In this document: positions 7,212 through 26,305 of the stretch, one piece after another
How positions within the stretch are numbered: position 1 is the stretch's first letter
How the letters are laid out: each line of letters begins with the position of its first letter
NCBI GenBank assembly: GCA_004376375.1
Contig: SOJX01000096.1
Span: forward strand, 20,557-84,556
Source: Planctomycetota bacterium
Lineage (GTDB): Bacteria; Planctomycetota; E44-bin39
DNA length: 64,000 nucleotides
Direction: 5' to 3'
Program-made: the position numbers and the translations under genes
The notes under the pieces: generated by a model
What the model was told of the DNA's origin: nothing
Database searches by the model: none
The model's input: only the letters and a program-made list of their open reading frames with translations

Positions 7212-7295
7212 GCCGCGCAATCCATTATGCCCGACAGGAGTGTCGGGCCTACCGGATGCCGCGCAATCCATTATGCCCGACAGGAGTGTCGGGCC
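7212..7295. repeat. REP-like element doublet: two direct copies of a 38-bp unit, each containing the hairpin GCCCGACA-GGAG-TGTCGGGC
   Basis: gccgcgcaatccattatgcccgacaggagtgtcgggcc at 7212-7249 and 7258-7295. A third copy of the hairpin is at 13175-13199. Confidence 0.7.
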
Positions 7296-8697
7296 GGCCA
7301 AAGAACTTCTTCCAGTAGTGTCCCTTCAGGACCCTGAGCGCAATCCACGGCGCCATCAGCCCCAGGTTCAGAATCTGCCTCGGCTTTATGAAGCCATTCG
7401 AAAGCGACTTCCGCATTATCCGCAACACCTGGGGCGCGTCGTAAAAACGCAACGTGATTTTCTTCAAAAGCTCAGTTAACTCTTCCTTTCCAAACTCGGA
7501 GGAATAAACGCCGCCGTCGGGACCCACGAAAACGTCGGAGTCCGCGTCTATCAACTCGCCCAGCCGGCTGTGCTTCTCGTACCGCAGGCGGTTGAGCGAA
7601 ATAATATCAAGCCCCACCCGCCTGGCGAAAGGCACGATTGAAAGCATCGCCCGGTCCGTCTCCCCGATGTTTCCGATAATAAAATAACCGTTTATCAGCA
7701 CCCGCGAGCGCGCCAGGCTCCGCATCGCCTCGGCGACGTCGGAGGTCGTAAAACCTTTGCCGAGCATTTTCAGCGTCCGGTCGACCGCGGACTCGATGCC
7801 TATATTCAGAATCACGAAACCCGCGCTCTCGAGTTTCCTGACCAGCCGCTCGTTCCGGCCGATCTCGATCCTTGCATTAGCGAGAAACTTTGTCTTCAGC
7901 TTTTCTGCCGTCAACCGGTCGCAGATTTCCTCCGCGCGCGCCTCATCGGCGAAAAAGTTATCGTCGATAAACGCGACTATATCCGCACGCGTACCCGCGA
8001 TTTCGCGGACAACCGCGGCCGGGTCGCGCGGCGTCCAGGTGCGCCTCTGGCCGAGCGGGTTCATCTTAAAGGAGCAGAACTTGCAGTTATACGGACAGCC
8101 GCGGCTGCCGAGAACGGCGTCGAAGGTCGTTCCGATGTCCCAGCCCTTGAACGTAATCCTGTACGGCTTCGCGCGGAGCTCGCGGGCGGGCTCGAGATTA
8201 TCGTCGATCTCACAAAGCGGGCGCGACGGATTGTGAACGATACTTTCACCGTTTCTGAAACTGATGCCTTCTATTTTCTTGAGAACTCCCGGGTCGCGCA
8301 AATCGCTTTCCAGCGAAAGCAGTTCGTGAACCGTTTCTTCGCCCTCCCCCCGCACGACAGCGGCCACCCGCGGACAGCGGTTGAGGATTTCTTCTGCGGA
8401 AACGGTCGCCTCGCGGCCGCCGACGATCACAACGGCGTGTTCGGGCAACGCATTGATTGTTTCCATAACGGAATCGAAATCGTAGCGCCAGTTCACGGAC
8501 ACGCAGACAAGGTCAACGGATTCGGGGATCGATTCCGGCGAATCCGGATTCTGCCGTGCGTCGAAAAGCTCGACCTTCGGAACTTTTTCTTTGAGGACGC
8601 GGGCGATATATTCAAGCCCGATGGGTGGGAAGAACTCGTATATCGGGACTTCGCGCCGGTAGGGGTAGAGGCATAACGCGTGCTTGAACTGCGGCAC
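7249..8697 (-). CDS. B12-binding domain radical SAM enzyme
   Basis: 482 aa. The N-terminal half resembles a cobalamin-binding domain. CPYNCKFCSF matches the CxxxCxxC radical SAM cluster motif. The last ~17 codons are supplied by the REP doublet. Confidence 0.7.
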   Translation of the reverse strand: MPQFKHALCLYPYRREVPIYEFFPPIGLEYIARVLKEKVPKVELFDARQNPDSPESIPESVDLVCVSVNWRYDFDSVMETINALPEHAVVIVGGREATVSAEEILNRCPRVAAVVRGEGEETVHELLSLESDLRDPGVLKKIEGISFRNGESIVHNPSRPLCEIDDNLEPARELRAKPYRITFKGWDIGTTFDAVLGSRGCPYNCKFCSFKMNPLGQRRTWTPRDPAAVVREIAGTRADIVAFIDDNFFADEARAEEICDRLTAEKLKTKFLANARIEIGRNERLVRKLESAGFVILNIGIESAVDRTLKMLGKGFTTSDVAEAMRSLARSRVLINGYFIIGNIGETDRAMLSIVPFARRVGLDIISLNRLRYEKHSRLGELIDADSDVFVGPDGGVYSSEFGKEELTELLKKITLRFYDAPQVLRIMRKSLSNGFIKPRQILNLGLMAPWIALRVLKGHYWKKFFGRPDTPVGHNGLRGIR

Positions 8698-8699
8698 TG

Positions 8700-11276
8700 T
8701 TACCTCCCCGTCTCCTTCGGCGGCTCTTCGGGTTTTTTGTCGGCGGGTTTTTGGGATTGTTCGCCGGCTGGCTTTTCTTCGGAAGGTGTCTTTTCCTCAG
8801 GGGCCGCAGGTTTTTCGCCGCCGGCCTTTTTCTCCGGAGCTTCTTCCTCTTTTTCTTTTGGAGCGTGCTTTTCAAGCCACTTGCTTATTACATCGAATAG
8901 CTGTTTCGGCAGGCGGAGTTCCTTCACCGGCGCGGCCTCCGAGTTAATCAGCGCCTCGTTGCCGAATTCGACGGCGTTACGCGTCCAGGTCGGAGCCTGC
9001 TTCGAATCCGGCTCCGAGATAACCAGCCTTGCGTAGTACTGCCAGAGCGCGGCTGTACGTTCAGGATTCGAAGGATAGAGCTTTCGCGCGTTCTGGAGTT
9101 CCGCCACCACCGCCCGGCGGTTTATCCCGAGCCGGATAAGGTCTTCCCTGGAAAGCTTGTCAAGAGCTACATAGCCGGCAAGCGCAAATTTAAACGCATC
9201 GTAATGGAGATTCGGATTAACGCTGAAAAGCTCGTCCTTTCTTTTCTGAAGTTTTGCCATCGCAACGGCGTCATAATCGGCGTCCCACTGGACCAGAGCG
9301 TTATAGAACCGTTCGCGGTAAAAGCGAAAATCCAGCGGATTCAGATTTATGGCTCTGTCAAGCGCCGCATCCGATTTTAGAGCCAGGTCTTTCGCCTTCT
9401 TGTGGTGCAGACGCAGGGCGCTCCGGGCGAGTCGCGTGGGATTCGTCGCGTTCTTGAAAACCATGTCCGCGCGGATAAACCGCATCGTGAAGAGACCCAG
9501 CGCCGCGGTCGCCGCGATAAAAACTATTACAAGTGTATAACGCGCGCCCGTGCCAAGCGGCAGAACGAAAAAGCTCTGCGGTTTCTGGGGCGCGACCGAG
9601 ACGATCGCCAGCGCAGCGACAACAATAAAAGCAAGCTGAACGCCCAGCGAGTAAAAACTGAAATCAACCAGGTTGTGCCAGAGGAACGCGAAAAAAGCGG
9701 CAACCAGCCCGGCGGTGAGCCAGGAATCCTTGAAGAAGAATTGATAACCGGCAATGCCCTCGTCTTTGTCTTTGGGCAGCGGCTCCCTGAAAAGCCAGTT
9801 AACCGGAAGAAGGAGCAGGAAAAATATTATCAGGACCGCAAGTCCGAAGTGCGTATTCATTTCCGTAGCCGGGCTGATGAGGAAACTCGATATCAACGCG
9901 GCAAGCGCGGCGCCGACGCCGATTGATAACACTATGGCCCGGTCATTCCCGAAAATGCTCCGCGTTCGCTCCGCCGGCAGGCGCTCGTGCGGCTCGAACA
10001 CGCGCGTAATTATCGAGGCAAAGAAAAGGAAAAAGAAAAGCAGGCCCGCGGCCCCGAGCTCGGTCCAGAGCTGAATATAAGAATTATGGGTAAGGGTGGA
10101 AGTTTCCGCGCCGGGCGGTTTGTAGATCGAATAGTTGTACTGGTAGTTGCCGCCGCCGACGCCGATCAGCCCGTTTCGTTTTATCATGCGCCCGGCCGTG
10201 CTCCAGTAGCCGTGCCGGACTTTCATGGAAGCTCCCAGCCACGACCCGTCCTTGCTTTTCAGGTTTCCGATGGAAAAAACCACCAGCCCCAGGAACATCG
10301 CGCCCAGAAGGCCGTAGGCATACCAGTCCGCGTGTTTCCTGATCTTCGAGATTATCACAAGGAGCGCAAGCGTACCCAGCCCTATGGCGCAGGCAACTAT
10401 CCCGCCCTTGGAGCGGGAAAGAAGAAGGGCTGACGCGGCAAGAGCGGTGCCGATGCCGGCCGCCGAAAGCCGCACCCAGCGCCAGGTGCCGGAACCCCGC
10501 CGTCTGATTAACTCTGCAACCAGGCCGGCGCCAAGGCACACCCCCATCGCGAGCACGGTGCCCAGGACGTTGGGGTTTTTAAACCACGTATACATGTCGA
10601 ATGCGCGCGCCCGGTCGACCAGGGGCTTTGTGTATATTCCCGCGCCCGCGCGCACATCCGGGCGAAGGCAGAAGTATTCGTAGAGCCCGGCCACCGCCGC
10701 GGCGACGCACGCGGCAAAAACGAGCGCCGCGAGCGCTATACGCACGCGCCGGTCAACGCCCAGATTAACAACGAGAATAAAAACAAGGAGAAACGCCGTT
10801 GCGTGGACGGCAGTATTAAACGCCGGCAGCGCGTAATCGGCGATCGGGACCTGAATCCAGGCAACCAGCGTAAATACGGCGAGAAAAACACCGCTGAGTA
10901 CGCCCGTTTTCAGCAGGCGAATCTCGCGCCGCATAAAGAAAAAAAGGCTCCACAGCGCGGCAGCGACCAGAAGCACAAGGCTTAGCAGGAGGTTTATCGA
11001 AGACAACTGGGGTTTCGTGCCCGTCTCGCTGTAAAATCCCGTTGTAGAATCGAGAATAAGGCTTGAGTGAAAAAACCGCAGAACAAAACCGAAGGCGAGC
11101 ACAACGAGCACGAGCACCAGCAGCCAGCTCTCGGCCTTTGTCTTTACCTCGGCCTGCCCGGCATCGGAGACCGCGGTTGACTTCTTCTGCATCGCATCCG
11201 GCACTGGTGCGGCAGCGTCTGCGTCCCGGCGCTTTTTCTTTTTGCCTTTCTGCCGTTTTCCCCGTTTCCTGGCCAT
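8700..11276 (-). CDS. Polytopic membrane protein of the O-antigen ligase (Wzy_C) family with a C-terminal TPR-like soluble domain
   Basis: 858 aa with more than 10 predicted transmembrane helices. HNSYIQLWTELG matches the Wzy_C/WaaL H-N-x-Y...E signature. The C-terminal ~280 aa are helical-repeat-like with a lysine-rich tail. Confidence 0.6.
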   Translation of the reverse strand: MARKRGKRQKGKKKKRRDADAAAPVPDAMQKKSTAVSDAGQAEVKTKAESWLLVLVLVVLAFGFVLRFFHSSLILDSTTGFYSETGTKPQLSSINLLLSLVLLVAAALWSLFFFMRREIRLLKTGVLSGVFLAVFTLVAWIQVPIADYALPAFNTAVHATAFLLVFILVVNLGVDRRVRIALAALVFAACVAAAVAGLYEYFCLRPDVRAGAGIYTKPLVDRARAFDMYTWFKNPNVLGTVLAMGVCLGAGLVAELIRRRGSGTWRWVRLSAAGIGTALAASALLLSRSKGGIVACAIGLGTLALLVIISKIRKHADWYAYGLLGAMFLGLVVFSIGNLKSKDGSWLGASMKVRHGYWSTAGRMIKRNGLIGVGGGNYQYNYSIYKPPGAETSTLTHNSYIQLWTELGAAGLLFFFLFFASIITRVFEPHERLPAERTRSIFGNDRAIVLSIGVGAALAALISSFLISPATEMNTHFGLAVLIIFFLLLLPVNWLFREPLPKDKDEGIAGYQFFFKDSWLTAGLVAAFFAFLWHNLVDFSFYSLGVQLAFIVVAALAIVSVAPQKPQSFFVLPLGTGARYTLVIVFIAATAALGLFTMRFIRADMVFKNATNPTRLARSALRLHHKKAKDLALKSDAALDRAINLNPLDFRFYRERFYNALVQWDADYDAVAMAKLQKRKDELFSVNPNLHYDAFKFALAGYVALDKLSREDLIRLGINRRAVVAELQNARKLYPSNPERTAALWQYYARLVISEPDSKQAPTWTRNAVEFGNEALINSEAAPVKELRLPKQLFDVISKWLEKHAPKEKEEEAPEKKAGGEKPAAPEEKTPSEEKPAGEQSQKPADKKPEEPPKETGR

Positions 11277-13475: not shown

Positions 13476-14870
13476 ATGATTCGCAAACTCCTCCTTTCCG
13501 CATGCATACTTGCGATTGCTCTTGCCTTTTTGCCGCTTGCGCAGGCCAAACTCAGCTCGGCCGAATGGAAGAAAGCCAAGAGCAACCTTGACAAGCTGCT
13601 GAGGGCGGGCGAGGCAGGTAAAGCCCAACTCCCCGACGCGATAAGAAAAGTAGCCGACGACAATTCAGACCGCGCAGTCAAACTGCTGCTCACAGTCGGG
13701 CTGAGGGTTGAAGACTCCGCGGTATATGAAGCGACAAAGTCCGCGCTCTCCTCGATAACGGACCCCAAGGGAATGAAGGCTATCCGCAAGGAGCTCGAGC
13801 GCAAGAGCGACAAGAACTGGCGGATAAAGGTAATACTCGTCGAAGTCGTCGCCCGCATGCTGGGACGCGAGAAAATCAGGATAATATCCGACATCGCCGC
13901 GAACGAGACCAAGCAGGAAGTGCTTCGCGCGGTAATAAGGGCATGCAGAATCATCGACACCAAGGAAGTGATTTCCCCGCTGATCGAGCTGGTGAGGCGT
14001 TTCGAGAAGCTCAAAGGCAGCGTATGGATGGACTCCCGCGACGCGCTGTTCGCCATCACGGGCGGCGAAGATTTCGACTGCGCCGCAGACTGGAAACAGT
14101 GGTGGGACGGCGAGAAGGCAACCTGGAAAAAACCAAGCGAGGAAGATAAGGAAAAAGAAGAATCGGGCGCAAAAGGGGAGTCAGAGGGTTACAGGACGTC
14201 CCCGCGCAAGGCGCCGAGATTTTTCGGCACCGAAGTCACTTCAAAGCTTGTCGTTTTCGTGCTCGATACATCCGGCTCGATGAAGATCAAAGACCCCGGT
14301 GAAAACCCCGAAGATGAAGATGAAAAACCCGACACGCGAACAACCGCGGACCCGAAAAAGAAAAAGCAAAGCGGAGGCGGCGGCAAGGCGGGGAAGCAGA
14401 AACTGCCCGACCACCGGATGAGGGTAAAACGCGCCCAGAAAGAACTTATTAAGTGCATAAAAGCCCTGGATCCCAACGTGGAATTCAACATAGTTACCTA
14501 CGACTCAACCACAACTACATGGAGCAGGTCTGGCCTCAAGGTCGCGAGCGCTGCAAACAAGAAAGACGCTATCAAATACGTCAAGAACTTTCAGCCCAAA
14601 GCCACGACCCACACCGATGACGCCATCATCCGCGCGTTCAAGGAAAACCCGAAGGCCGACACCCTGATTTTGCTCTCCGACGGCTGGCCGACCCACAAAG
14701 GCGATAACAGCGACTGCAAGGAGATTATCGACCGCATCTGGAAGTTTCTGGCAAAAGCCAACAAGTTCCGCCGCGTCAGAATATTCACATTCGGCTTTGT
14801 AGACGCCCACCGCGCATTCATGGTGGAGCTGGCACGCAAGAACGGCGGCAAGTACAAAGATATCAAGTAG
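13476..14870 (+). CDS. Secreted protein with N-terminal HEAT-like repeats and a C-terminal von Willebrand factor A (vWA) domain
   Basis: Signal peptide. VVFVLDTSGSM MIDAS motif (DxSGS). 464 aa. Confidence 0.65.
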   Translation: MIRKLLLSACILAIALAFLPLAQAKLSSAEWKKAKSNLDKLLRAGEAGKAQLPDAIRKVADDNSDRAVKLLLTVGLRVEDSAVYEATKSALSSITDPKGMKAIRKELERKSDKNWRIKVILVEVVARMLGREKIRIISDIAANETKQEVLRAVIRACRIIDTKEVISPLIELVRRFEKLKGSVWMDSRDALFAITGGEDFDCAADWKQWWDGEKATWKKPSEEDKEKEESGAKGESEGYRTSPRKAPRFFGTEVTSKLVVFVLDTSGSMKIKDPGENPEDEDEKPDTRTTADPKKKKQSGGGGKAGKQKLPDHRMRVKRAQKELIKCIKALDPNVEFNIVTYDSTTTTWSRSGLKVASAANKKDAIKYVKNFQPKATTHTDDAIIRAFKENPKADTLILLSDGWPTHKGDNSDCKEIIDRIWKFLAKANKFRRVRIFTFGFVDAHRAFMVELARKNGGKYKDIK

Positions 14871-15014
14871 TTATCGCCCCGGGCCCGAAATGTAACGTTT
14901 ATGTAATACCTTCAAAGGCGGCATTTTTCACTACATTATTCCCCTTTTTAATCGTATAATTCCTAGAGGGAAAAGGTAAATATCTGCCGTATTCGAATAT
15001 CAAGGAGATATAAA

Positions 15015-15746
15015 ATGCGCGTACAAAAAAACCTCCAGTTTCTGCTTGGAGTAGCTATCCTTGCAATGGGCATAGTTCTTCTTATGACCCCATGCGCAAC
15101 AGGGTGAGGCGGCGGTGGAGCCCGGCGTCCGCCGTCGCGGCCGCCAGTAAGCCCGCCTCCAGGAGGAGGAGGACAACCCAGCAGCACACCCGACAGTCAA
15201 TGGCCCGAACCTGACCACGCACCACCGCCATCCACCGACGAAGACAAAAGTGGTGACAAAAGCGACGAAGGCGGTTCGAAAAGCAAAGTAACAAAGAAAC
15301 CCAAGGTGACCATCTTCGACGAGTTCGAAGGACTTGACAGCAAACGCGAAGATAAGCCCGTCATTTTCTTCTTCTACATCGAGGCCACGTCGCAGAAAGA
15401 CCGCAGCAAGCCGGTGCTGAATTCTCAACAGATGGCCAGGATGCTTGCGCACCCGAAAGTTTCCAATCAATTGAGCGAGTTCAGCTGCTACCGGCGCAAT
15501 TACAAAAAGACCAAGAAGGCCATTCGTAAGAAGTACAAGGTCAAGACCGCGCCGATGCTTGTCGTATTCGACGCCACCGGCAAGGTGATCTTCAGGACTA
15601 CGAGCTTCAAGATCAAGCCTGAAAGACTGGTGGCAACGCTCAAGAAGCTGGTCAAGAAATCTGAAAAGAATCTTGAGAAGTTCCAGAAGAAGCGCGAAAA
15701 GGATGAAGAAAAAGCTGCAAAAAAAGCTGAGAAAGAAAACGAATAA
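15015..15746 (+). CDS. Trx-fold paralog 0: signal peptide, in-frame TGA (15105-15107), Gly/Pro linker, thioredoxin-like domain, Lys-rich tail
   Basis: ATG at 15015 after GGAGA. MRVQKNLQFLLGVAILAMGIVLLMTPCATG-[TGA]-GGGGARRPPSRPP... continues in frame into the table ORF 15306..15746. Confidence 0.5.
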
Positions 15747-15772
15747 CAATTTACGACCCGACTGAACTAATG

Positions 15773-15805
15773 CTGAGCCCGGTCAAAGCCGGGCTCAGTT
15801 TCTTT
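15773..15805 (+). terminator. Rho-independent terminator after paralog 0
   Basis: ctgagcccggtcaaagccgggctcag hairpin followed by a T-rich run. Confidence 0.6.
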
Positions 15806-16009
15806 AATTGCCTTTTACATTACACAATCTGATTCTTCCACATAACTTACTGAGGTCAGCATAGATATACGCGCTGCTTCATTCCGTTGCCCCAGGCGTG
15901 AAAAGCCGGACTGGAAAGTCTGTCTATTTATGCCCTAAATGTCCTTTTACCGGCGCAATACAATAACTGTCACGTTTTTGTAATAATTGGATACAAATGT
16001 AATTCAAGC

Positions 16010-16038
16010 TTGTCATAGCAGAATTTCCGGGATATAAT
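16010..16038 (+). promoter_or_regulatory. Sigma70-like promoter of paralog 1 (TTGTCA-17-TATAAT)
   Basis: TTGTCA at 16010-16015, TATAAT at 16033-16038. Conserved TTTTGTAATAA box 24 nt upstream (15976-15986). Confidence 0.5.
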
Positions 16039-16129
16039 AGGAACAGATAAGGGAAGAAAGGTGTAAGGTTATATAGATGGTTTGATCTATGGCTCCGTTC
16101 GCCGAAGAACGGCCATGGAGGGAGGACCA

Positions 16130-17017
16130 ATGCAACGCACACTAGTTTTATTTATCGCGGCCCTGGCCATCACTGTTATGGCCCTGGACCTTCCCGCATA
16201 TTGCTGAGGTGGCGGAGGAGGATCGCGACCGCCGGCGCGGCCGCCAGCAAGACCGCCGACTCCACCTCCGGCACCGCCTCCGCGTCCGCCGAGTACGCCA
16301 CCGCCGAGCACACCGAGACCGCCGAGTACGCCACCGCCGAGCACGCCGACTCCGCCGAGGACGCCGACTCCGCCTCCAAGGCTGTCGACGCCTATTCCGC
16401 CAAGAGCTCCTGTAACGCTCGGCTGGCCGGAAGCGAAGCCGGTAGCGAACCCGACGCCGAAGAACGAGCCGACCATTACCGGCCGCGGCATCTTCGGTAA
16501 AAAGGACGGCAAAGCGGGAAAAGCGGAAAAATCGGCGAACAAGGTTATCGTCAAAAAGAAGGTGAAAATAACCTGCTTCGACGACTTCGACGCGCTGAAG
16601 GGCAAGGAAGAGAACAAGCCGGTCGTCATTTTCGTGTACTGGCCCGACAGGACCGACGACGCCGGCCGCACCTCAAAGCTCTATGCAAACTGCCAGAAGA
16701 TGATTGAAGTCCTTGCCAACGCGGACGTGCAATCCGCGCTGAGACAGTGTCAGTGCTACAAAGTGAATTTCCAGGGGCTTGACAAATCGCGCCGCAAACG
16801 TTACGGCGTGAAATCCGTACCGACGCTGCTCTTCATCGACGCAACCGGCAAGGTTCTCAAGAGACTTACATCACCGCGGATAAAACCCGCGAGCCTGGTT
16901 CGGCTGATACTGACCGTCGTCAAGAAGTCGGACAAGAACATGGAGAAGCTCGAGAAGAAGCGCGAAAGAGCCGCGGAAAAGGCAGCGGAAAAGGCAGCGG
17001 AAAAGGAGCGATCTTAG
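16130..17017 (+). CDS. Trx-fold paralog 1 with in-frame TGA at 16205-16207
   Basis: GGAGGGAGG RBS. MQRTLVLFIAALAITVMALDLPAYC-[TGA]-GGGGGSRPPARPP... No in-frame ATG for 357 nt after the TGA, yet that stretch is conserved at protein level with the other copies. In frame with table ORF 16562..17017. Confidence 0.55.
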
Positions 17018-17065
17018 CGCCGACACTCGGCGGCCTCTGAACAGGCTGCAACTTTACCGGAACCG

Positions 17066-17097
17066 AAAGCCCGGGATTTATCCCGGGCTTTATTTTT
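17066..17097 (+). terminator. Rho-independent terminator after paralog 1
   Basis: aaagcccgggatttatcccgggcttt followed by ATTTTTGG. Confidence 0.65.
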
Positions 17098-17177
17098 GGC
17101 CTCTCCAAGGCCCGAAAATCGCATTATTTGCCTTGTGTAACAGTTTTGTAATAACAGATAATACTGCCCTAACTTAC

Positions 17178-17206
17178 TTGCATCCCGGCCCGCCATGTCT
17201 TAAAAT
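17178..17206 (+). promoter_or_regulatory. Sigma70-like promoter of paralog 2 (TTGCAT-17-TAAAAT)
   Basis: TTGCAT at 17178-17183, TAAAAT at 17201-17206. TTTTGTAATAA box at 17144-17154. Confidence 0.5.
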
Positions 17207-17261
17207 ACAGTGACAGCTAAAAGGTATATTACGAACCAGAGTCCGATAAGAAGGAGAACTT

Positions 17262-18074
17262 ATGAAAAAGCTGCCAATAATATTTATTGCTGCGCTGGCC
17301 ATCACCGTAATGGCCCTGGACCTTCCCGCATACTGCTGAGGCGGCGGAGGAGGATCGCGGCCGCCGGCGCGGCCGCCTGCAAGACCGCCGACACCAAGAC
17401 CGCCATCAAATCCCGGTGGTAACCCGGGTGGCAGTAATCCGGGTGGTGGAGGCACGCCAATGGTACCTACGGGTTCTAAACCGAGTATCAATTGGCCGGA
17501 AGCCAAACCAGTCGCCAACCCGACTCCCAAATCCGAGCCCACGACCACGGGCAGAGGGATTCTCGGGAAAAAAGACGACAAAACTGACGAGAAATCCGGC
17601 TCCAAAGTCATCGTCACCAAGAAGCCGAAAATTACCTGCTTCGACGACTTTGACGCGCTGAAGGGCAAGGAAGAGAACAAGCCAGTTGCCATTTTCGTGT
17701 ACTGGCCGGACCGGACAAACTCAAAAGGCCAGACGTCGAAGGCGTACCAGAACAGTCAGAAGATGATTGACCTCCTTGCCAAGTCTGCGGTTCAGTCGGC
17801 CTTCCGCGAGCTTAACTGCTACAAGGTGAACTACAAGTCGCTCGACAAGTCGCGCCTCAAACGCTACGGCGTGAGAGGCGCGCCGACGCTGCTCTTCATC
17901 GACGCGACCGGCAAGGTTCTCAAGAGAATCACCTCTTCGCGGATCAAGGCTGCAAGTCTTGTGAAACTGATCAAGACCGTTGTCAAGAAATCAGACAAGA
18001 ACCTTAAAAGGCTTCAGAAGAAGCGCGAAAAGGCAGAAGAGAAAAAAGCAAAAGAGGAAGAAGAGAAGAAATAA
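17262..18074 (+). CDS. Trx-fold paralog 2 with in-frame TGA at 17337-17339
   Basis: AAGGAGA RBS. MKKLPIIFIAALAITVMALDLPAYC-[TGA]-GGGGGSRPPARPP... In frame with table ORF 17460..18074. Confidence 0.55.
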
Positions 18075-18112
18075 GAAAACAGCTTCTTCCAGTACAATGG
18101 CAGATTAACTTC

Positions 18113-18146
18113 AAAGCCCGGGACTCGTCCCGGGCTTTTGTTTTTC
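18113..18146 (+). terminator. Rho-independent terminator after paralog 2
   Basis: aaagcccgggactcgtcccgggctttt followed by GTTTTT. Confidence 0.65.
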
Positions 18147-18198
18147 CACAGCAGGTTTATGAAAGACAAGCGGGTACAGTGTTTCCCGAAAGTTAGTT

Positions 18199-19173
18199 CT
18201 ACTGGGAATGAGTCTTGAAGAAATCCCAGATAACGGTGTTGGCGTCCATATCGCGGCAGGTTTTGCCGACCAGCCATTCACCCAGATACTGCCATCCGCC
18301 GGGCCAGGTGTGACCGCCGCCTACCACTTCATAGTAAACGACCTCCGAGCCGCTCAAACCATTGCCGTATACATCCCGCCGCACCAGCGTTCCGTCGTCG
18401 GGGTCCAGGTCGGGCAGCCATGTAACGGTCGGCGCCGGATCGCACACGTTGTTGCTCACCCAGTAATTGACCGTATTTGCCGCCGATATGACGCGCCCCA
18501 TTCCGGTGATGCCGAGGATTACTATATCCCCGCCGCCGAAGGGAACCATCGGATCCTCAACGCCGACCATGATCAGGATGGGAATCGGGCCCATCGGCGT
18601 GAGCAGCGACAGGTTTTCGGTAAGCGAGCCGCAGACCGGGGCGACGGCGGCGAACCTGTCGGACGCTTCAATGCCGAGGCGGTGGGACATGAAGGAACCG
18701 TTGGATATCCCGGTCGCGTACACGCGCTTGCGGTCGATATTATAACTATCGTCGAAGTAATCGATAAGGGTGGAGAGGAAACCCACGTCGTCGACATTAT
18801 AGAGGTGCGAAGCGTAGTCCTCTATGCCGCGCCCGTCGTTCCATTGCTTTTCGTAAGCGTCCGGGTAAACGACGATGAATCCTTCGCTTTCCGAGAGCGT
18901 GTCGAAACCTCCCTGCGTAAGGGCTATCATCCTGTCGCCGTTACCGCCGCCGCCGTGAAGGGCGAAGACCAGCGGCTGTTCATCCGCGTAAGTCCACGAC
19001 GCGGGAACATGGTACTCGAAAGTCCGCGTCAGGCCTATGTGCTGTATCGAATCCTTGTGGTCTCCGGGGCCGATAGAAGGGCCGGCCGGAGGGAAGAAAA
19101 GGTTGCTTTTCTTTTTCCTGCAGGCGGGTACAAGAAGCGCGAAAAAAAGGAGCGTGAAAGTCATATAACGCAT
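18199..19173 (-). CDS. Lipoprotein esterase of the PHB-depolymerase/LpqC-like alpha/beta-hydrolase family
   Basis: Signal with lipobox LLVPACRKK. FALHGGGGNG and GISNG (GxSxG nucleophile elbow) motifs. 324 aa. Confidence 0.5.
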   Translation of the reverse strand: MRYMTFTLLFFALLVPACRKKKSNLFFPPAGPSIGPGDHKDSIQHIGLTRTFEYHVPASWTYADEQPLVFALHGGGGNGDRMIALTQGGFDTLSESEGFIVVYPDAYEKQWNDGRGIEDYASHLYNVDDVGFLSTLIDYFDDSYNIDRKRVYATGISNGSFMSHRLGIEASDRFAAVAPVCGSLTENLSLLTPMGPIPILIMVGVEDPMVPFGGGDIVILGITGMGRVISAANTVNYWVSNNVCDPAPTVTWLPDLDPDDGTLVRRDVYGNGLSGSEVVYYEVVGGGHTWPGGWQYLGEWLVGKTCRDMDANTVIWDFFKTHSQ

Positions 19174-19283
19174 TTTTTATCCTCTGGCCTTGGATATAAT
19201 TCAATCATCAGGCGAGGCACGTCATCGCTTTAATATATCATACAACACCGCATTAAACAAGGTTGCAGAATCTTCAACCCCGT

Positions 19284-20276
19284 TTACGGCGAATCCGTCA
19301 CGTCCGCTTTGCGCACGTCCGTTCCGTCGCTCCAGGTGCCGAGGTGGCGCTGCTTACCGGTGCCATCGAGCCCGTAAGCGCGGTTCCTCCCTTTTACGGC
19401 GAAATCGGAGAGCGCGTCGAACCACTTCCAGAATCCGTACCAGTCCAACGCGTCCGGTCTGAAAAACGACCCCGCCAGAGGCGCAAAGTGGCCCGCGACC
19501 AGAGGCGGTTCTCCGTGCTCGTCGGTATGGACTGTAATGAAATCCTTGTTTTCGAGACTAACCTGCGTCGCTCCGAAAAATATTTTTTTTGCAATCCGAT
19601 TCCCGACCATCCTGTCGTCCGCGCCGACAACCAGGAGCATCAGCGTGTCGGACGGGATGCGCGCGTAATCCTCGAGCGAAGATACCGGACCTCCCGGCTC
19701 GACGCACATCATGGCCCGGATTTTCGGGAGGTTCTCTCTCTCGGCGAGGGCGGCGATGTTCGCGGTCAGAACCCCGCCCATCGAATGCCCCAGCGCGCAG
19801 ACATTGTCGAGCTGTGGCGATACATGGCCTGCTTTTTTGAGTTTGGCAATTGCCGATTTTATCGCGCTTATCGCGTTCGGCGTAAAGTGTCTGGCACGCG
19901 TGAAAATCGAATTCTGGTAACGCGGGTAGATTACAACAGACCCCCGCCGCACGATGTGCTTTATCCATTCAAGGTAAGACCTCGGATTCATCGCACCCCA
20001 GCCGTGATTGAAGATTACGACGGGCGCGCTTTTCGGCTTCGGGTCCGCGGGCTCGAACAGCCAGTACCGCGTCCCTCCCGTGCCGTGGTGACTTTTCGTT
20101 ACGGACCCGTGCGCATACTCGGACGACCCGGGCCCGCTTTTCGGCTGCACCGGAGGAGTAATATCGCCGGTGTAAATGCCAGCCGGTTTATCTGCGAACT
20201 TGCAGCCGCTCCCGACCACCGCCGCGAAGAGCAGGACGACGAAGATGCCGGGTTTGAGTGGTAGAAATGTTTTCAT
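19284..20276 (-). CDS. Lipoprotein alpha/beta-hydrolase (lipase/esterase-like)
   Basis: Signal with lipobox VVGSGCKF. GHSMGG nucleophile motif. 330 aa. Confidence 0.5.
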   Translation of the reverse strand: MKTFLPLKPGIFVVLLFAAVVGSGCKFADKPAGIYTGDITPPVQPKSGPGSSEYAHGSVTKSHHGTGGTRYWLFEPADPKPKSAPVVIFNHGWGAMNPRSYLEWIKHIVRRGSVVIYPRYQNSIFTRARHFTPNAISAIKSAIAKLKKAGHVSPQLDNVCALGHSMGGVLTANIAALAERENLPKIRAMMCVEPGGPVSSLEDYARIPSDTLMLLVVGADDRMVGNRIAKKIFFGATQVSLENKDFITVHTDEHGEPPLVAGHFAPLAGSFFRPDALDWYGFWKWFDALSDFAVKGRNRAYGLDGTGKQRHLGTWSDGTDVRKADVTDSP

Positions 20277-20309
20277 TTATTAAGGCACCTTTGAGAATGC
20301 ATGCGAAGT

Positions 20310-21401
20310 TCAATAGCGCAGCAGGGCTGCGATATTGCCGACTTCGGTCAGGCCCGGAATCGGGTCGACGAAGTCCGCTTCCGCACCGGATGATGCGAGC
20401 AACTCGATTATCTCGTTGACAAGGTCGATTTTAAAAATTGACTGCGAGCCGCATTTGGAACAGGCCGCATGCGCTCCCTCGTCCAGATGATCGCAGTCGC
20501 GGCAGCGGATGCCGTCTATCCGAACATCGCGGCTGACGACAACCTTGCTGACCCGCCCCGCTTTCGCCGCGTCGAGCACGTCCGCGGCGCCGACGGTTGC
20601 CTTGCCTTTACGACAGTATTCGTTCCTGATCCGCTCCCAGAGCCTTTCTTCGGAGCGGCGTTCCTCGTCGAAGTACAGGTCGAATATTTCCCGGTTGATA
20701 CAATGCTCGCCTTCGGACAGGTTCATGGCCTTTTCGCCGACAAGTTTCCTGGCGAGATGGGCCGGAAGCACCCGCTTGATTTCAGCCAGCGTTTCCCTCG
20801 ACCCGGCCATAAGGATGCGGCGGAAGCTCTCGCTCCGGTCCAGTTCCTTAAGCCTGTCGACGATATCCTTGGCGTAATGATGAAGCTGTTTGTCGCGCCT
20901 GCGCTCGTAGCGCTGCTGCGACCAGCCGCCTTTCCGCACGTGGTTTTTTATATTCCCCCTGACTCGCTCCTCGGACTCGGCCTTCGCGGACACGACCAGA
21001 TAAATGCGGGCGGATTTATTGTCGGCGACGACCACCGCGAAATTCTCGTATTCGTCCTGCAGTTCGGCCAGCGGACGGATATAGGGCGAGGAATCAACGA
21101 TTAATAAATCGGGCATATCTACTTCAATCGGAAAGGCCTTGAAATAATCCAGCGCCCAGCAGGCGAAAATGCATATCCCGCCGGACTCGACCGGATTCTT
21201 CTTCAGGTATTTTTCCACAAGCTCGATGTTCTCATCGAAGTATTCCGCTTCGTCCCTGTTATCCCGTAAAAGAGAGCGCGTGTTCCCGATGCGCTTCCCC
21301 AGCGATTCCAGCGCTCCGGCATCGGAAAGGTAGAGGCTCAGAAACGCGCGGTCCGGCGCCGTTACTTTCGCCAATTCGCGCAGGTTGATTTTGTCGAACA
21401 T
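20310..21401 (-). CDS. Hypothetical protein, tentatively eRF1/Pelota-like (bacterial aeRF1-type), with a C-terminal C4 zinc ribbon
   Basis: 363 aa. Central KGGWSQQRYERRRD loop reminiscent of the eRF1/Dom34 central-domain loop. C-terminal CRDCDH...CSKCGS zinc ribbon. Assignment is by motif impression only. Confidence 0.3.
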   Translation of the reverse strand: MFDKINLRELAKVTAPDRAFLSLYLSDAGALESLGKRIGNTRSLLRDNRDEAEYFDENIELVEKYLKKNPVESGGICIFACWALDYFKAFPIEVDMPDLLIVDSSPYIRPLAELQDEYENFAVVVADNKSARIYLVVSAKAESEERVRGNIKNHVRKGGWSQQRYERRRDKQLHHYAKDIVDRLKELDRSESFRRILMAGSRETLAEIKRVLPAHLARKLVGEKAMNLSEGEHCINREIFDLYFDEERRSEERLWERIRNEYCRKGKATVGAADVLDAAKAGRVSKVVVSRDVRIDGIRCRDCDHLDEGAHAACSKCGSQSIFKIDLVNEIIELLASSGAEADFVDPIPGLTEVGNIAALLRY

Positions 21402-21464
21402 GATATGACCGGCCTCCTATTGCTCTGTTACGCCTGATGTGATAAGTAGGCCGTCAATGCGAGG

Positions 21465-21590
21465 AGCGAAGCGACGTAGCAATCTCAGACTAGGTTACAG
21501 GTTACAGGTTACAGGTATCAGAATATATTTTTTACCTGTTACCTGTCACCTGTTACCTGATTTGTCGGCAGCTTTGCTACCTCCTCGCAA
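21465..21590. repeat. Nested intergenic palindrome built on GGTTACA heptad repeats
   Basis: Inner arms CAGGTTACAGGTTACAGGTA / TACCTGTTACCTGTCACCTGTTACCTG. Outer arms ttgcgaggag...gtagcaa / ttgctacctcctcgcaa. Confidence 0.7.
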
Positions 21591-21634
21591 TGACCTGTAC
21601 ATATCATTTGAGGTGTAACGGAGTACTAGTTATC

Positions 21635-22219
21635 TTATCTCCTCAGTTCTTTCCATGTCTTTCCGCCGTTGGCGCGGATGAAATCTGCAATCGCTTCGTG
21701 CCGCAATAACTGCGCCCAGTCAAGGGGCGCACATCCGAATTCGTCTTTTGTATTGATGTCGGCCTTCATTCTTACCAGCGACTCAACAAGGTCCTTGTTT
21801 TTTTCCCGTATCGCCCAGAACAGCGGCGTCCAGTCGTCTTCATCTCTCGCGTCTATTTCCGCGCCTTTGTCGATCAGCAGCATCGCAACGTCATTCCATT
21901 TATTCCTTGCGGCCAGGTGCAGGGGGAAGCTCTTAAACATGCTCTTTGGCACCAGGGTGTTGACATGTTCCCAGTGTTCTGCCAGGAATTCCGCTGCCTT
22001 CTCGCCGCCTTCCAGTTCCCCCGCCAGCACATCGAAGCCTTTCCTGCCTTTGCCGAGCAGCCAGCTGACGGATTTCACCCTCTCTTTCGCGTCATTGGAA
22101 TGCAGACAGGAGGCGTTCCACAATATTCTCACCGGCGTCCACAGCAGGCAGGTCGCTATCACGGCCGCGAAAAGCAGGACGACGAAGATAGTGAGCTTGA
22201 GAGGCAGCGAAAGCTTCAT
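21635..22219 (-). CDS. Ankyrin-repeat protein with N-terminal signal/anchor
   Basis: Three or four ankyrin repeats (LHLAARNKWNDVAMLLIDKGAEIDARDEDDWTPLFWAIREKNKDLVESLV...). The N-terminal 19 aa are nearly identical to those of the 19284..20276 gene. Confidence 0.65.
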   Translation of the reverse strand: MKLSLPLKLTIFVVLLFAAVIATCLLWTPVRILWNASCLHSNDAKERVKSVSWLLGKGRKGFDVLAGELEGGEKAAEFLAEHWEHVNTLVPKSMFKSFPLHLAARNKWNDVAMLLIDKGAEIDARDEDDWTPLFWAIREKNKDLVESLVRMKADINTKDEFGCAPLDWAQLLRHEAIADFIRANGGKTWKELRR

Positions 22220-22309
22220 TTATTCTCTTTTGTCTCTTTTTCGGATTTCTTTTCAGGTTCTGGAACAGGGAGAGTAATTTCCGTGATTTCCTCGACCTTG
22301 AGTGAATCC

Positions 22310-23410
22310 TTAATCGGTATAATGAGCAGGCGCGGTTTTTTTTCCCGTAAGCTGAAGGACAAACCTGCTTCGGTCGCCGGATGAATTGTATAATTCAAAG
22401 CGGTCACCCGGTTTGCTTGGTATGTCCAGAATCACTTTTCGGCCTTTTTCAGTGTGGACGGCGAGAACGATCTCACTGGGCACTTTATCTTCCCTGTCCG
22501 CTTCTTTTTCTGAATCCTCATCATCGCTTTTCGGCTCGGGGATATTCTTCAGCTCTATTGCGTATATCCTGTCTTTAATCATTACAGGCGGCCCCAGAAT
22601 ATTTTTTGAATGACCAATCCAGAGGAGTTTGCCCGTTGAAAGGTCAAATACGCCGAGTTCGCTTATGCGGTCGAGCTTGTATGATATATTATGACTGCCG
22701 TATCTGACGCCGAGAACAATCTTTTTGTGGTCGCTGGAGACTCTTGTGAATATCATCATCTGATCTTTCACTTTAATAATCTTGTCGAGTTCCGGTTTGC
22801 CGATTGTCACCATTTTTTTGGCGCCGGGTGAATAGACTTCGATTTTCTGGAAAGCCCAGCCGAGCAGTTTTTTCGACTCGTCTTCGGGATCTTCAGTTAT
22901 AATACGGAGAAAACAGCCGTCGCCCGCGTTCCATGCATGATAATCCAGAGTGGTTATAATATTCGAAAGGTTATCAAGGGAGTAGACTGTTGTTTTCCAT
23001 TTTTCTTCTTCTTCCTTGCAAGGGACGTAAAGCGCGTTCCCGCCGTCGAAGGTTCCTGTAAAAATGAAAAGCTCGCTGGCTTTTATGGATGTTTCCGTGC
23101 ATTCTCCGGTTGCAGGATTCACCAGCCAGTAAGGACCATCGTCGTTGCTGTTTACCTTCTCGCTGCCTATCAACAGATTACTTTTAATCCATCTAAGGCC
23201 TTTCGGCTCCCACCCTTCGGGAAGTTTCAGGTCTGTAACCTTTTTCGTCGCAAGCTCGACGACGTAAATTCTATTAAGGCCTTCCAAGACCATCACGTGA
23301 ACGGCCACGTACTTGCCGTCGGGCGAGAACTTGGGCAGGACGTCATATATGCATCCTGCAACCCATAAAAATATAAAGACAATAATTAGAAATCTGGTAA
23401 CCCTCAGCAT
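22310..23410 (-). CDS. Lipoprotein with TolB-like/WD40-like beta-propeller repeats
   Basis: N-terminal transmembrane/signal with WVAGC. Repeated PDGKYVA-type blades. The table ORF extends to 23452. Confidence 0.45.
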   Translation of the reverse strand: MLRVTRFLIIVFIFLWVAGCIYDVLPKFSPDGKYVAVHVMVLEGLNRIYVVELATKKVTDLKLPEGWEPKGLRWIKSNLLIGSEKVNSNDDGPYWLVNPATGECTETSIKASELFIFTGTFDGGNALYVPCKEEEEKWKTTVYSLDNLSNIITTLDYHAWNAGDGCFLRIITEDPEDESKKLLGWAFQKIEVYSPGAKKMVTIGKPELDKIIKVKDQMMIFTRVSSDHKKIVLGVRYGSHNISYKLDRISELGVFDLSTGKLLWIGHSKNILGPPVMIKDRIYAIELKNIPEPKSDDEDSEKEADREDKVPSEIVLAVHTEKGRKVILDIPSKPGDRFELYNSSGDRSRFVLQLTGKKTAPAHYTD

Positions 23411-23653
23411 TAATTGATCTCCATTTTGCTGAATACCGAACCACCTGACCACCGTATTCTATCCCGCATTAGAAAAGAATGCAACCAATAGCAGAAAAGC
23501 GATGCCTCAAGAACAGGCAAGATGAACAAAAAGCAGGTAAACAAAGCGAAAAACCGGCAAAAATGCATCATTTCGGACATCTGCATCACCAAATCTGCTC
23601 TATTTGGCTTATGTAAAGGTTTTGTAATAATAGACAGGCGTGTCCTAATATAC

Positions 23654-23725: not shown

Positions 23726-24523
23726 ATGCAAAAACTGCTTACCACATTCCTGCTCGCTATGTGTGCAGTCGGATTTGCCTTGGACAATGTGGCCTATGCT
23801 GCCGGCGGCTGTTGAGGCGGCGGTGGCACTCCGCGGCCGCCGGCGCGGCCACCTACGACTCCAAGACCGCCTGCAGGAAATCCCGGGAACCCCGGTACTC
23901 CCAGTACGGGAACTCCCATTCAGCCTCGTACGCCCGCAGAACTCAGCTGGCCTGAGGCCAAACCCGTTGCCGAATCGACCCCTGAAGTTGAGCCCACAAC
24001 TACGGGCAAGGGAATTCTCGGTAAAAAGGACGACAAGGGCAAAACGGCTGAAGGGGAAAAATCCGGCAACAAGGTCGTCGTTAAAAAGCGAGAAAAACCC
24101 ACCTGCTTCGACGACTTCGACGCGCTGAAAGGGAAGGAAGAAAATAAACCTGTCCTCCTTTTCGTGTACTGGCCTGACATGAAGGATTCCAAAGGCCGCA
24201 CTTCGAAGGCCTACGAGAACTGCCGGAAGATGATTGAACTCCTTGCCAGGTCGTCGGTCCAGTCAGCCCTCGAAAAGATAGACTGTTACAAAGTCAACTA
24301 CAAGTCGCTCGACAAGGCGCGCCTCAAACGCTACGGCGTGAAAGGCACGCCGACGCTGATTTTCATCGACGCGACCGGCAAGGTGCTCAAGAGGATCACG
24401 TCTCCGCGGATAAAGCCGTCAAACCTTATCCGGTTGATTAAGACCATCGTCAAGAAATCGGACAGGAACCTGGAGAAGCTTCAGAAGAAGCGCGAGAAGG
24501 AAGAGGAAAAGCAGTCCAAGTAA
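23726..24523 (+). CDS. Trx-fold paralog 3 with in-frame TGA at 23813-23815
   Basis: MQKLLTTFLLAMCAVGFALDNVAYAAGGC-[TGA]-GGGGTPRPPARPP... In frame with table ORF 24164..24523. Confidence 0.55.
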
Positions 24524-24578: not shown

Positions 24579-25397
24579 ATGCGAAAACTGCTTATCCCGT
24601 TTGTACTCGCCTTATGCATAGTCGGATTTGCAGTAGATGATGTGACGCATGCATGCGACACCTGCGGCTGCGGTAAAAAAGGGCCTTGCGGTCCGAGCGG
24701 TGGCGGTGGCGGTGGTTGCTGAGGCAGCGGCGGCACTTCGAAGCCGCCGGTAGCTGGGCCTACCGGTAAAAACTCTCAGCCCGACAAGCCCATTGGCATC
24801 CCGTGGCCGGATGCAAAACCGGCATCTGAAGAAACGGTCACCGGCAAAGAAATCCTCAAGAAGAAAGACGACAAGGCCGCGGCCGGCAAAACCGATACCG
24901 GCAAAAACGCGGCAGAAAAGGGCGGAACCGACCCGAAAAAGGCGACCTGTTTCAACGACTTCGACGCGCTCAAAGGCAAGGAGTTGAAAAAGCCGATCCT
25001 TCTCTATTTCTACTGGCCCGAGGACAAGGCTTCGAAAAGCCGGGCGCAATACCGCGATTGTCAGAAGATGAACAAACTGCTTTTCGAGGACCCGGACGTC
25101 AAGGATGAACTTTCCAAACTCGATTGCTACAAGGTTAACCTGTCCATACTGAGTAAAGAGCTCAAGAAACAGTACAAGATTAAGAGCGCGCCGACGCTGA
25201 TCTTCATCGACCCGACCGGAAAGGTGCTCAAGAAAAGCTCTTCAACCAGGACAAAACCTTCGAGAATGGTCCGCCTGATAAAGTCGGTCGTCAAAGCCTC
25301 CGCCCGCAACCTGAAGCGGTACAAGAAAAAACTGGCGCAGGAAGAGAAAAAGGAAAAACCGCAGGCAAAGGAGGAAGACGAAGCCAAGGCCAAATGA
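24579..25397 (+). CDS. Trx-fold paralog 4 with in-frame TGA at 24720-24722; extra Cys cluster before the TGA; probably co-transcribed with paralog 3
   Basis: GGGAGA RBS. ...HACDTCGCGKKGPCGPSGGGGGGC-[TGA]-GSGG... In frame with table ORF 24984..25397. No separate promoter in the 55-nt gap after paralog 3. This copy ends with TGA. Confidence 0.5.
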
Positions 25398-25452: not shown

Positions 25453-25486
25453 AAAGCCCGGGATAAAACCCGGGCTTTTTTTCTGC
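25453..25486 (+). terminator. Rho-independent terminator after paralog 4
   Basis: aaagcccgggataaaacccgggctttttttc. Confidence 0.65.
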
Positions 25487-25609: not shown

Positions 25610-26305
25610 CTACCTGTAGACTTTGACGAGCATGCGGAGGAAACGCAAAGTATCGCGGGCGGGTCTGATGGTGGACTGTTCGTCGCCGTAGACGCAGCTT
25701 ATCGGGACTTCCGCGAAGCGAAAACCGCGGCGGGCGGCGCGGATCAGAATCTCCGACTCGAATGCATAACGTGAAGAAGAATACTTCACACCCATGACAA
25801 CCCGCGGGCGAATAAGCCGGTATCCGGTCTGAGTATCGGATATGCCAGGTCCGCCAAGAATGGAAAGTAAAAGAGACTGGGAACGGTTGACGGCCCGGCG
25901 GTGAAGCGGCATTTCTTTCGGATTGCGGAGCCTGTTGCCCAGGACGATATCCGCGCCCGTCTGGGTCATTTTGTCTATAAAGCGGGGCATTTCTTCGGGG
26001 AGGTGCTGGCCGTCGGCGTCGAGAGTGAATGCGGCGTCAAATCCTTTATGTCCGGCAAGCTGCAGGCCCTTTATCAGCGCAACCCCCTTTCCGCGATTGC
26101 GCTCGAATCTGACAACTTCGGCACCCGCCGAGGAAGCAACATCGGAGGTATCGTCGCTCGAACCGTCGTCGATAACCCAGACGTCGTGGAGGTAACGCTT
26201 CACGCGGCGCACCACGTCGGCAATGTGCTTACCCTCGTTGTATGCAGGAATAACAGCGCAGCAGGTCAGTTCAGAGGTGAGTGAATCGGCCGCACAAGTG
26301 GCCAT
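25610..26305 (-). CDS. GT2-family glycosyltransferase (polyprenol-phosphate sugar transferase, DPM1-like)
   Basis: CAVIPAYNE...VWVIDDGSSDDT...NRGKG motifs of GT2 dolichyl/undecaprenyl-phosphate glycosyltransferases. 231 aa. Confidence 0.65.
   Translation of the reverse strand: MATCAADSLTSELTCCAVIPAYNEGKHIADVVRRVKRYLHDVWVIDDGSSDDTSDVASSAGAEVVRFERNRGKGVALIKGLQLAGHKGFDAAFTLDADGQHLPEEMPRFIDKMTQTGADIVLGNRLRNPKEMPLHRRAVNRSQSLLLSILGGPGISDTQTGYRLIRPRVVMGVKYSSSRYAFESEILIRAARRGFRFAEVPISCVYGDEQSTIRPARDTLRFLRMLVKVYR

Follow-up and report, generated by a model that had tools for sequence, protein, structure and literature searches.

The mobile C-terminal arm of mammalian thioredoxin reductase (TrxR) ends with Gly-Cys-Sec-Gly, where Sec is selenocysteine. 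In the selenoproteins that have a thioredoxin (Trx) fold, i.e., Trx, Grx, Prx-like, DsbA/DsbG-like and PF13098 UxxC proteins, Sec replaces a cysteine of CxxC or TxxC inside the fold, as given in the available part of a current inventory (PMC13188914, Table 1). Metal chelation was proposed for the CU/CC motifs of the selenoproteins SaoB, SaoC, SaoL and HgcA, and the CU motifs in exported Sao proteins were argued to mark heavy-metal handling (Haft & Gwadz 2022, bioRxiv 10.1101/2022.07.06.499078). The DNA analysed here is a stretch of 64,000 nucleotides (the window) from a Planctomycetota bacterium (GenBank assembly GCA_004376375.1, contig SOJX01000096.1, positions 20,557 to 84,556). It carries an array of five related genes, g1 to g5, each with a single in-frame TGA directly past the signal peptide and a C-terminal Trx fold with a dead active site. 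The genes constitute a probable new selenoprotein family with a degenerate Trx fold, and they are best explained as encoding exported proteins with a Sec tip and a non-catalytic Trx-fold module, an explanation to which, as a whole, we give a probability of about 0.55. The initial annotation, made from the sequence of the window, had regarded this architecture as undescribed. In agreement with it, no model of NCBIfam r20 was matched above the cut-off, and no matching family was found in the available part of the 119-family inventory (PMC13188914).

The open reading frame (ORF) 16562-17017, which starts with GTG and encodes 151 amino acids, exists as listed, although it is only the tail of the longer gene g2 (16130-17017; all five genes lie on the forward strand). 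When the frame was read upstream from 16562, no TAA or TAG was found back to the ATG at 16130, and the sole interruption is the TGA at 16205-16207. A Shine-Dalgarno-like GGAGG lies immediately 5' of this ATG. The full product of 295 amino acids consists, in order, of the signal peptide MQRTLVLFIAALAITVMALDLPAY, a cysteine, the UGA-encoded residue (U), GGGGG and SRPPARPPARPP (together ..DLPAY-C-U-GGGGG-SRPPARPP), about 70 Pro-rich residues, the motif WPEAKPVA (16424-16447), a Lys-rich linker, the domain and a Lys/Glu tail.

The four further genes have the layout of g2, with exactly one in-frame TGA each. In g1 (15015-15746; TGA 15105-15107), the signal peptide and the tip ..TPCATG-U-GGGG-ARRPPSRPP are followed by a linker, a WPEPD motif, a CxxC-less Trx fold of the YIEATS type and a KKREK tail. 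The tip of g3 (17262-18074; TGA 17337-17339) reads as that of g2, its Trx fold is of the WPDRTN type, and P0001 is a truncated call of this gene. The sequence ..AYAAGG-C-U-GGGG-TPRPPARPP and a fold of the WPDMKD type characterise g4 (23726-24523; TGA 23813-23815), while g5 (24579-25397; TGA 24720-24722) has a Cys-rich tip, ..THA-CDTCGCGKKGPCGPSGGGGGG-C-U-GSGG, a fold of the WPEDKA type and a stop codon of its own that is also TGA. The Lys-rich tail described previously is present; in g2 it is rich in Lys and Glu (16946-17014) and was predicted by AlphaFold2 (AF2) to extend the last helix as one long helix.

DNA was recovered for 14 family members, of which 13, from the metagenome-assembled genome (MAG) of the window and from other samples, bear the TGA. 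In all of these 13 one TGA occurs at the same place and is followed by GGGG(G)-[AS]-R-[PT]-P, except for g5, where GSGGTSKPP is found instead. The two flanks of the TGA evolve as coding sequence: in orthologue pairs, the substitutions favour third codon positions in one and the same frame both 5' of the TGA and in the 56-99 codons 3' of it, with, for example, 8/5/23 and 14/5/40 differences at codon positions 1/2/3 between the TGA and the domain. No start codon or ribosome-binding site was found past the TGA for approximately 40-120 codons in the five window genes. These results support the earlier statement that the genes require decoding of UGA. As TGA is the stop codon of 9 of the 38 long ORFs in the window, g5 included, a genome-wide reassignment of UGA was rejected. 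Findings of this kind are the classical signs by which selenoprotein genes are recognised, and no established mechanism other than Sec accounts for them. We consider it quite likely that the UGA is decoded as Sec.

The UGA-free relatives P0002, P0018 and P0050 carry the signal peptide, the linker and the domain within one ORF. Cysteines are found at the tip in P0050 (AFAQ-CC-GGGC-PNGG..GGGC-PTGKC) and P0018 (C-FDE-C-SGQGRRP), though only at an equivalent place, as the tip region is of low complexity and is not alignable residue by residue. P0002, a paralogue encoded on another contig (locus L001, 10001-10729), reads ..TAGC-RRPPRPP-C-GTP (C-x7-C), with neither a TGA nor the Gly run.

The alternative is that the TGA is not a Sec codon, being either a real stop, in pseudogenes or in a short leader ORF ahead of a domain that is translated on its own, or a site at which a standard tRNA (for Trp, Cys or Gly) reads through at a low level. 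It would agree with the hairpin data, which show no clear SECIS (selenocysteine insertion sequence) element, and with the lack of visible Sec machinery in the window and the fetched loci, both described below. Moreover, GGGGG-RP occurs at the same place in UGA-free relatives, so reading UGA as Gly would yield a homologous peptide. However, this TGA has been retained in all 13 genes, which come from at least six samples, although the sequence around it has diverged heavily at synonymous sites in the orthologue pairs that were compared, and TAA or TAG never takes its place. The domain made alone would also lose the signal peptide, unlike all full-length relatives. Together with the coding flanks in one frame, the missing start 3' of the TGA and the use of TGA as an ordinary stop elsewhere in the window, this makes the alternative quite improbable.

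Several observations nevertheless weigh against decoding as Sec and against the explanation built on it. No SECIS element was detected with Rfam, either in the whole window at the gathering score or in 14900-18200 at E<=10, where only terminator-like noise appeared. The candidate SECIS hairpin of g2 is the GC-rich segment past the TGA (16208-16250, forward strand), which consists of four to five GGN codons for Gly, six to seven further codons and CCGCC. Folding of the 50-66 nt after each TGA, as single sequences and as an alignment, showed that every UGA gene can form such a GC-rich hairpin, with GGNGG pairing to CCGCC six to seven codons away. These hairpins are stable, though not beyond the level of dinucleotide shuffles (z from +0.4 to -1.7), and their consensus contains no compensatory pairs, only C/U wobble changes opposite G (covariation term +0.35). 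As a Gly run stands beside a Pro run, the peptide by itself would lead to pairing of GGN with CCG codons, and runs of GGGGG-RP occur in UGA-free relatives too. Neither selA, selB, selD nor tRNA-Sec was found in the 64-kb window and the fetched loci (of which about 50 kb are from elsewhere in the same MAG), which were searched by tblastn with E. coli SelD, by Pfam listings of neighbouring genes and, for the window and 11 loci, with ARAGORN, as well as by one 10-kb extension at a contig end. No redox partner (DsbD, CcdA) is encoded near the array, and the function of the tip is something that we purely infer. A scan of the window and of loci L001 and L004 for further ORFs that are split by an in-frame TGA gave an output dominated by the spurious ORFs of a GC-rich genome.

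The C-terminal domain of g2 (16565-16945) is a Trx fold with a dead active site, as the initial annotation had proposed. The support from Pfam is partial: Thioredoxin_2 (PF13098) was matched by all five window proteins with E values from 6e-5 to 7e-3 (2e-4 for g1), but every score, at 17-23.7 bits, lies under the gathering score of 27. The family profile reaches the solved chains 2kuc_A (E 1.2e-6) and 2ju5_A of DsbH (E 1.1e-4). The AF2 model of the g2 domain, based on a 15-row alignment, has a predicted local distance difference test (pLDDT) value of 90, a predicted template modelling (pTM) score of 0.82 and the element order E-H-H-E-H-E-E-H, which was read as beta-alpha-beta-alpha-beta-beta-alpha, the thioredoxin type. 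Foldseek comparison of the model with PDB gave 185 matches at E<=1e-3, all 185 of them Trx folds with TM scores of 0.5-0.64, led by the C-terminal (gamma) domain of DsbD, a Xylella disulphide isomerase, AGR2, DsbH and ordinary thioredoxins. In the NCBIfam scan of the five proteins, the models of TsoB, DsbH and the like were matched in their Trx part, but only under the threshold.

The CxxC motif is absent from the Trx domains of all five window proteins, and the motifs WPDRTD, WPDRTN, WPDMKD, WPEDKA and YIEATS occur exactly as quoted in the initial annotation. Their placement at the WCGPC position was not correct. The active-site column was set using a hidden Markov model (HMM) alignment of 150 representative relatives, genuine CxxC proteins included, together with an alignment to 2kuc. 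The CxxC-bearing relatives read ..GSDWCGACKKL, ..TCVYCQQM and ..GAWCPWCIRM in this alignment, 2kuc reads WCGPCKRL, and the second Cys of CxxC falls on the Cys of YANCQKM in g2 (YANC, 16682-16693). In the family, the strand (VVIFVY in g2) and the helix are separated by an extra loop of 11-13 residues, PDRTDDAGRTSKL, before the vestigial site; in g2 the inserted loop is WPDRTDDAGRTSKL. The vestigial column reads YANC, YQNS, YENC, YRDC or VLNS, and thus the nucleophilic first Cys is lost, with Tyr, Leu or Val in its place. The second Cys is kept in g2, g4, g5 and most relatives and is replaced by Ser in g1 and g3, the latter reading NSQKM. By contrast with the WCGPC position, the cis-Pro loop had been recognised correctly as RYGVKSVPTLLFIDATGKVL, according to both the AF2 model and the profile alignment to 2kuc. 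The cis-Pro, assigned by alignment with YPTLLF of 2kuc (VPT, 16820-16822 in g2), is invariant in the family.

It had also been claimed that the domain holds no cysteine pair and that the N-terminal C-U is the only redox-capable site. No working Trx site remains, which agrees with the first part of the claim, but cysteines are not lacking. Besides the mostly kept second Cys, the next strand starts with CY[KR] (CYK in g2, 16754-16756), whose Cys is invariant in the family, and g2 and its orthologue in locus L007 have CQC (CxC) at the start of beta3 (16748-16756 in g2), which is not conserved in the family.

When the family profile was run against 5.8 billion proteins in a word-indexed search, only 14 proteins were obtained, all from uncultured Planctomycetota or metagenomes. 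The database entries of the UGA-bearing members are all truncated at the TGA, whereas the UGA-free P0002 was called at full length. At least two further paralogues are located on other contigs of the MAG of the window (GCA_030588815.1), and members occur in at least five other samples. A profile search with the domain alignment revealed one distant locus in genome contigs and three in metagenome contigs, and no new UGA members among them.

In an exhaustive HMMER search, 312 of 1.84 billion cluster representatives matched at E<=1e-3, and 51 of these at E<=1e-10. Among the best 150 of the 312 relatives, 100 domains span the strand-helix junction, and 96 of these 100 are without CxxC; the Cys in the second-Cys column is kept in 60 of the 96 and the cis-Pro in 93. 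Many full-length relatives are secreted, Lys-rich proteins with a Gly/Arg/Pro-rich N-terminal segment and a W-x-E motif; where a signal peptide can be recognised, it is in most cases followed by neither a TGA nor a Cys. Hence, the fold works without an N-terminal redox centre in most relatives, contrary to the view that the N-terminal dyad is needed for it. The CxxC-less fold is, judging from these alignments, probably non-catalytic, and the Sec tip is an addition within one small clade. In the relatives P0017, P0034 and P0044, the CxxC-less Trx-like module is fused to other domains, which by eye include a peptidase-looking region with HExxH and a metallo-beta-lactamase-like region with HSHGDH, as well as a large C-terminal region in a protein of 1064 amino acids. 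These fusions hint at a general targeting or binding role of the module.

The initial annotation treated the N-terminal tip as a fixed Cys-Sec dyad, and this was not confirmed. Among the 13 TGA members, CU is found in g2, g3, g4, g5 and two orthologues, CGU in two members, CAGU in one, and CxxxU in g1 and three orthologues. Since 0 to 3 residues separate Cys from Sec, it is U-GGGG, and not C-U, that is conserved as a unit. All 14 members have a Cys ahead of the tip, where the hydrophobic core ends, some 19-33 residues into the protein. It could be a redox or chelating partner of Sec, and it could equally be a lipobox Cys or a part of the c-region of the signal peptide. Cleavage of the signal peptide could also remove it in some members, as ACA|GU of locus L005 resembles the ACA|Q site of the relative P0035, and cleavage at AYA|U in L007 could make Sec the first mature residue. 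In g1, residues 14-44 (signal peptide and tip) weakly match NCBIfam NF058595 ('lipo-invert putative C-terminal anchoring domain', E 0.033), a match that is probably compositional.

The constant presence of this Cys at the end of the hydrophobic core, at a varying distance from U, bears on the possibility that the proteins are lipoproteins. The conserved Cys would then be the diacylglyceryl-modified +1 residue with a blocked thiol, Sec at +2 to +5 would be a lone selenol near the membrane, and the Gly/Pro rod would project the Trx-like module outward. Lipobox-like ends are present in P0002 (..ATAG|C), g4 (..AAGG|C), g5 (..THA|C), L004 (..FPA|C) and L005 (..YPA|C), and similar ends were found in three neighbouring genes of the window, VPAC (18199-19173), GSGC (19284-20276) and VAGC (22310-23452), and in the relative P0019 (VLAC|GG). 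However, only 5 of the 14 members have Gly or Ala at position -1, while Tyr, Trp or Pro in the other nine (PAY|C, PAW|C, TP|C) is unlike the usual lipobox, and the relatives mostly have A-x-A|Q sites of signal peptidase I, e.g., P0050 (AFA|QCC) and P0035 (ACA|Q). We regard a lipid anchor as rather unlikely.

The variable spacing is also relevant to the binding of soft metals or metalloids, in which the tip of Cys or Sec plus Gly would chelate Hg, Cu(I), Cd, As or similar in the periplasm. This reading overlaps with the explanation that we prefer and specifies the chemistry of the tip. Variable C-to-U spacing and Cys-rich tips, such as those of g5 (CDTCGCGKKGPCGPSGGGGGGCU) and P0050 (QCCGGGCPNGG..GGGCPTGKCP), look chelating and not catalytic, the many paralogues differ in their tips, and CU motifs are held to mark heavy-metal handling in the Sao proteins mentioned above. 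By this analogy, the Cys-rich tips make metal handling a serious candidate for the tip chemistry. On the other hand, no metal transporter, mer, cop or ars gene occurs in the neighbourhood, the Sao and Hgc models are not matched, and most members have a single Cys plus U. We hold metal binding to be less likely than not.

A third role for the tip was implied by the initial annotation, in which the N-terminal Cys-Sec dyad would dock in the vestigial Trx groove of its own protein, forming a split active site that is recycled by thioredoxin reductase, with fdhD as a marker of Sec machinery. The G-C-U-G of the mammalian TrxR arm does occur in g4 and g5, though only in these and not as a conserved feature of the family. 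Retention of the cis-Pro and, mostly, of the second CxxC Cys makes a mixed selenenylsulfide with the fold chemically conceivable. Against this, the vestigial Cys is missing in g1 and g3, the C-to-U spacing is inconstant and the tip is missing from most relatives that have the fold. In the AF2 model of the full-length UGA-free paralogue P0002, the Cys-bearing N-terminus has pLDDT <50 and is not placed on the fold, while the WPEAKP/WPEAKPVA region (residues 41-60) reaches pLDDT 67-78 with beta bridges, although the alignment is shallow there; this is weak negative evidence on docking. WPEAKPVA is conserved between g2 and P0002 and has a W-x-E counterpart in distant relatives. The model weakly suggests that this motif, and not the tip, packs on the Trx fold.

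Both genes invoked for the split active site are real as annotated, but they give no support for Sec machinery. The low-Mr thioredoxin reductase (49037-49990, reverse strand; Pyr_redox_2, E 1e-48; CATC motif) has no signal peptide and adjoins a BMP-type (nucleoside-type) ABC transporter 25 kb from the array, while the FdhD/NarQ family sulfurtransferase (60422-61249, reverse strand; PF02634, E 4e-64) has an unrelated ORF of 775 aa on one side and a DUF4838/PA14 protein on the other, and no gene for formate dehydrogenase (fdhA) adjoins it. TrxR is a near-universal, cytoplasmic housekeeping enzyme, and FdhD serves Cys-type formate dehydrogenases too; therefore, neither informs on Sec machinery, and both were judged to lie outside the system. 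Moreover, the UGA proteins are exported whereas TrxR is cytoplasmic, and no membrane relay of the DsbD or CcdA type is encoded nearby. A split active site is thus highly improbable.

According to the preferred explanation, the UGA is decoded co-translationally, most likely as Sec, and, lying at the end of the signal peptide, it would place the decoded residue at the mature N-terminus or a few residues from it. The four to five Gly residues and the Arg/Pro-rich rod of variable length would form a flexible tether with a reactive selenol as its tip. The C-terminal fold would have descended from an oxidoreductase similar to DsbD-gamma or Thioredoxin_7 by the loss of the nucleophilic Cys and the gain of the loop, with the cis-Pro kept, and would act as a non-catalytic binding or scaffold module that is common to many Sec-free, secreted, Lys-rich relatives. 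The W-P-E motif, rather than the tip, would pack against the fold, and the chemistry, either redox or the capture of soft metals or metalloids, would be performed by the Sec tip, alone or with the nearby Cys. A bolder version, which we think unlikely, is an unrecognised class of exported bacterial selenoproteins with Sec outside the active site, as the first or nearly first mature residue (possibly at +2 of a lipid anchor), in which the tethered selenol tip on a Gly/Pro rod and the dead Trx fold would make up a split or trans-acting device for redox or metal capture, present in at least seven paralogues per genome.

If the UGA does encode Sec, the family has a layout not found in the available part of the current inventory (PMC13188914), with Sec outside the Trx fold, at the junction with the signal peptide, and a degenerate CxxC. 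It would then contradict the rule of thumb by which Sec takes the position of an active-site Cys in proteins with a Trx fold, it would mean that gene callers and Sec-finding tools keyed to CxxC-like motifs miss such genes, and it would offer a natural system in which to study a single selenol that is tethered outside the cytoplasm. A sizeable family of Trx-like proteins of unknown function, which are secreted, rich in Lys and devoid of CxxC, is delineated as well.

GC-rich hairpins were observed 3' of UGA genes at 15772-15800, 17068-17100 and 25456-25485, those after g2 and g5 being followed by a T run, as in intrinsic terminators. With a 3' hairpin of its own for each UGA gene, the paralogues look like separate transcription units. 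The motif GTTTTGTAATAAYAGA is shared upstream of g2, g3 and g4 (15975-15990, 17143-17158 and 23619-23634, forward strand), 107-155 nt before their starts, with three matches against 0.4 expected, and the close relative L007 carries it too, at 9406-9415 and 10513-10522. It is a candidate for a common promoter or operator of the UGA genes.

Directly upstream of the array lies a gene for a secreted HEAT and VWA protein (13476-14870, forward strand) with the metal ion-dependent adhesion site (MIDAS) motif DTSGS and a Lys-rich insert of its own. This gene precedes the Trx-like array in the window, in L005 (3398-4801) and in L007 (6732-8120), and its product is a possible functional partner of the array. 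Downstream of the array, L005 shares the GT2 and topA genes of the window, and it lacks the block 18199-23452, which encodes two hydrolases, an ankyrin protein, an eRF1-like baeRF protein and a further protein of unknown function. Therefore, the block is an insertion and not a part of the system. The baeRF gene ('bacterial archaeo-eukaryotic release factor family 10'; 20310-21401, reverse strand; PF18854, E 1e-23) is situated between g3 and g4; a role of this protein in UGA decoding was considered unlikely, as its block is missing from the syntenic L005. The flanks of the array, all on the reverse strand, contain a B12-binding radical SAM enzyme (7249-8697), a large Wzy_C (O-antigen ligase-like) membrane protein (8700-11276) and a GT2 glycosyltransferase (25610-26305), and represent an envelope-biogenesis context.

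Compared with known systems, the UGA family is closest in fold to the DsbD-gamma, DsbH, Thioredoxin_7 and Thioredoxin_2 proteins (2fwf, 2fwe, 2ju5, 2kuc), with which it has the fold, the element order and the best structural and profile matches in common. Like the oxidoreductases of the DsbD-gamma type, its members are extracytoplasmic and have the cis-Pro loop xPT[LM] and the helix motif C-[QK]-[KR]-[ML] after the active site. Unlike them, they have Tyr, Leu or Val for the first Cys, the 11-13-residue loop before the helix and an appended long Lys/Glu helix, and their single sequences score under the Pfam gathering threshold.

With the SAO and HgcAB CU/CC selenoproteins the family shares the CU dipeptide, exported members, CC in homologues and the truncation of database entries at the UGA, whereas the fold and the gene neighbourhood differ and no model is matched. 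Similarly to the mammalian TrxR arm and the KCU-star, UXX-star and SaoC (CU-COOH) proteins, Sec would be carried by a flexible extension at one end of the chain, outside the globular part. However, this extension is N-terminal and not C-terminal, and, unlike in TrxR, the proteins have no flavin, flavoprotein or dithiol domain that could reload Sec. A Trx fold and an in-frame UGA, and probably also Cys-containing homologues, are features in common with the Trx-fold selenoproteins, but the putative Sec of the UGA family lies more than 100 residues upstream of the fold, in a low-complexity segment beside the signal peptide, and the active site of the fold itself is dead.

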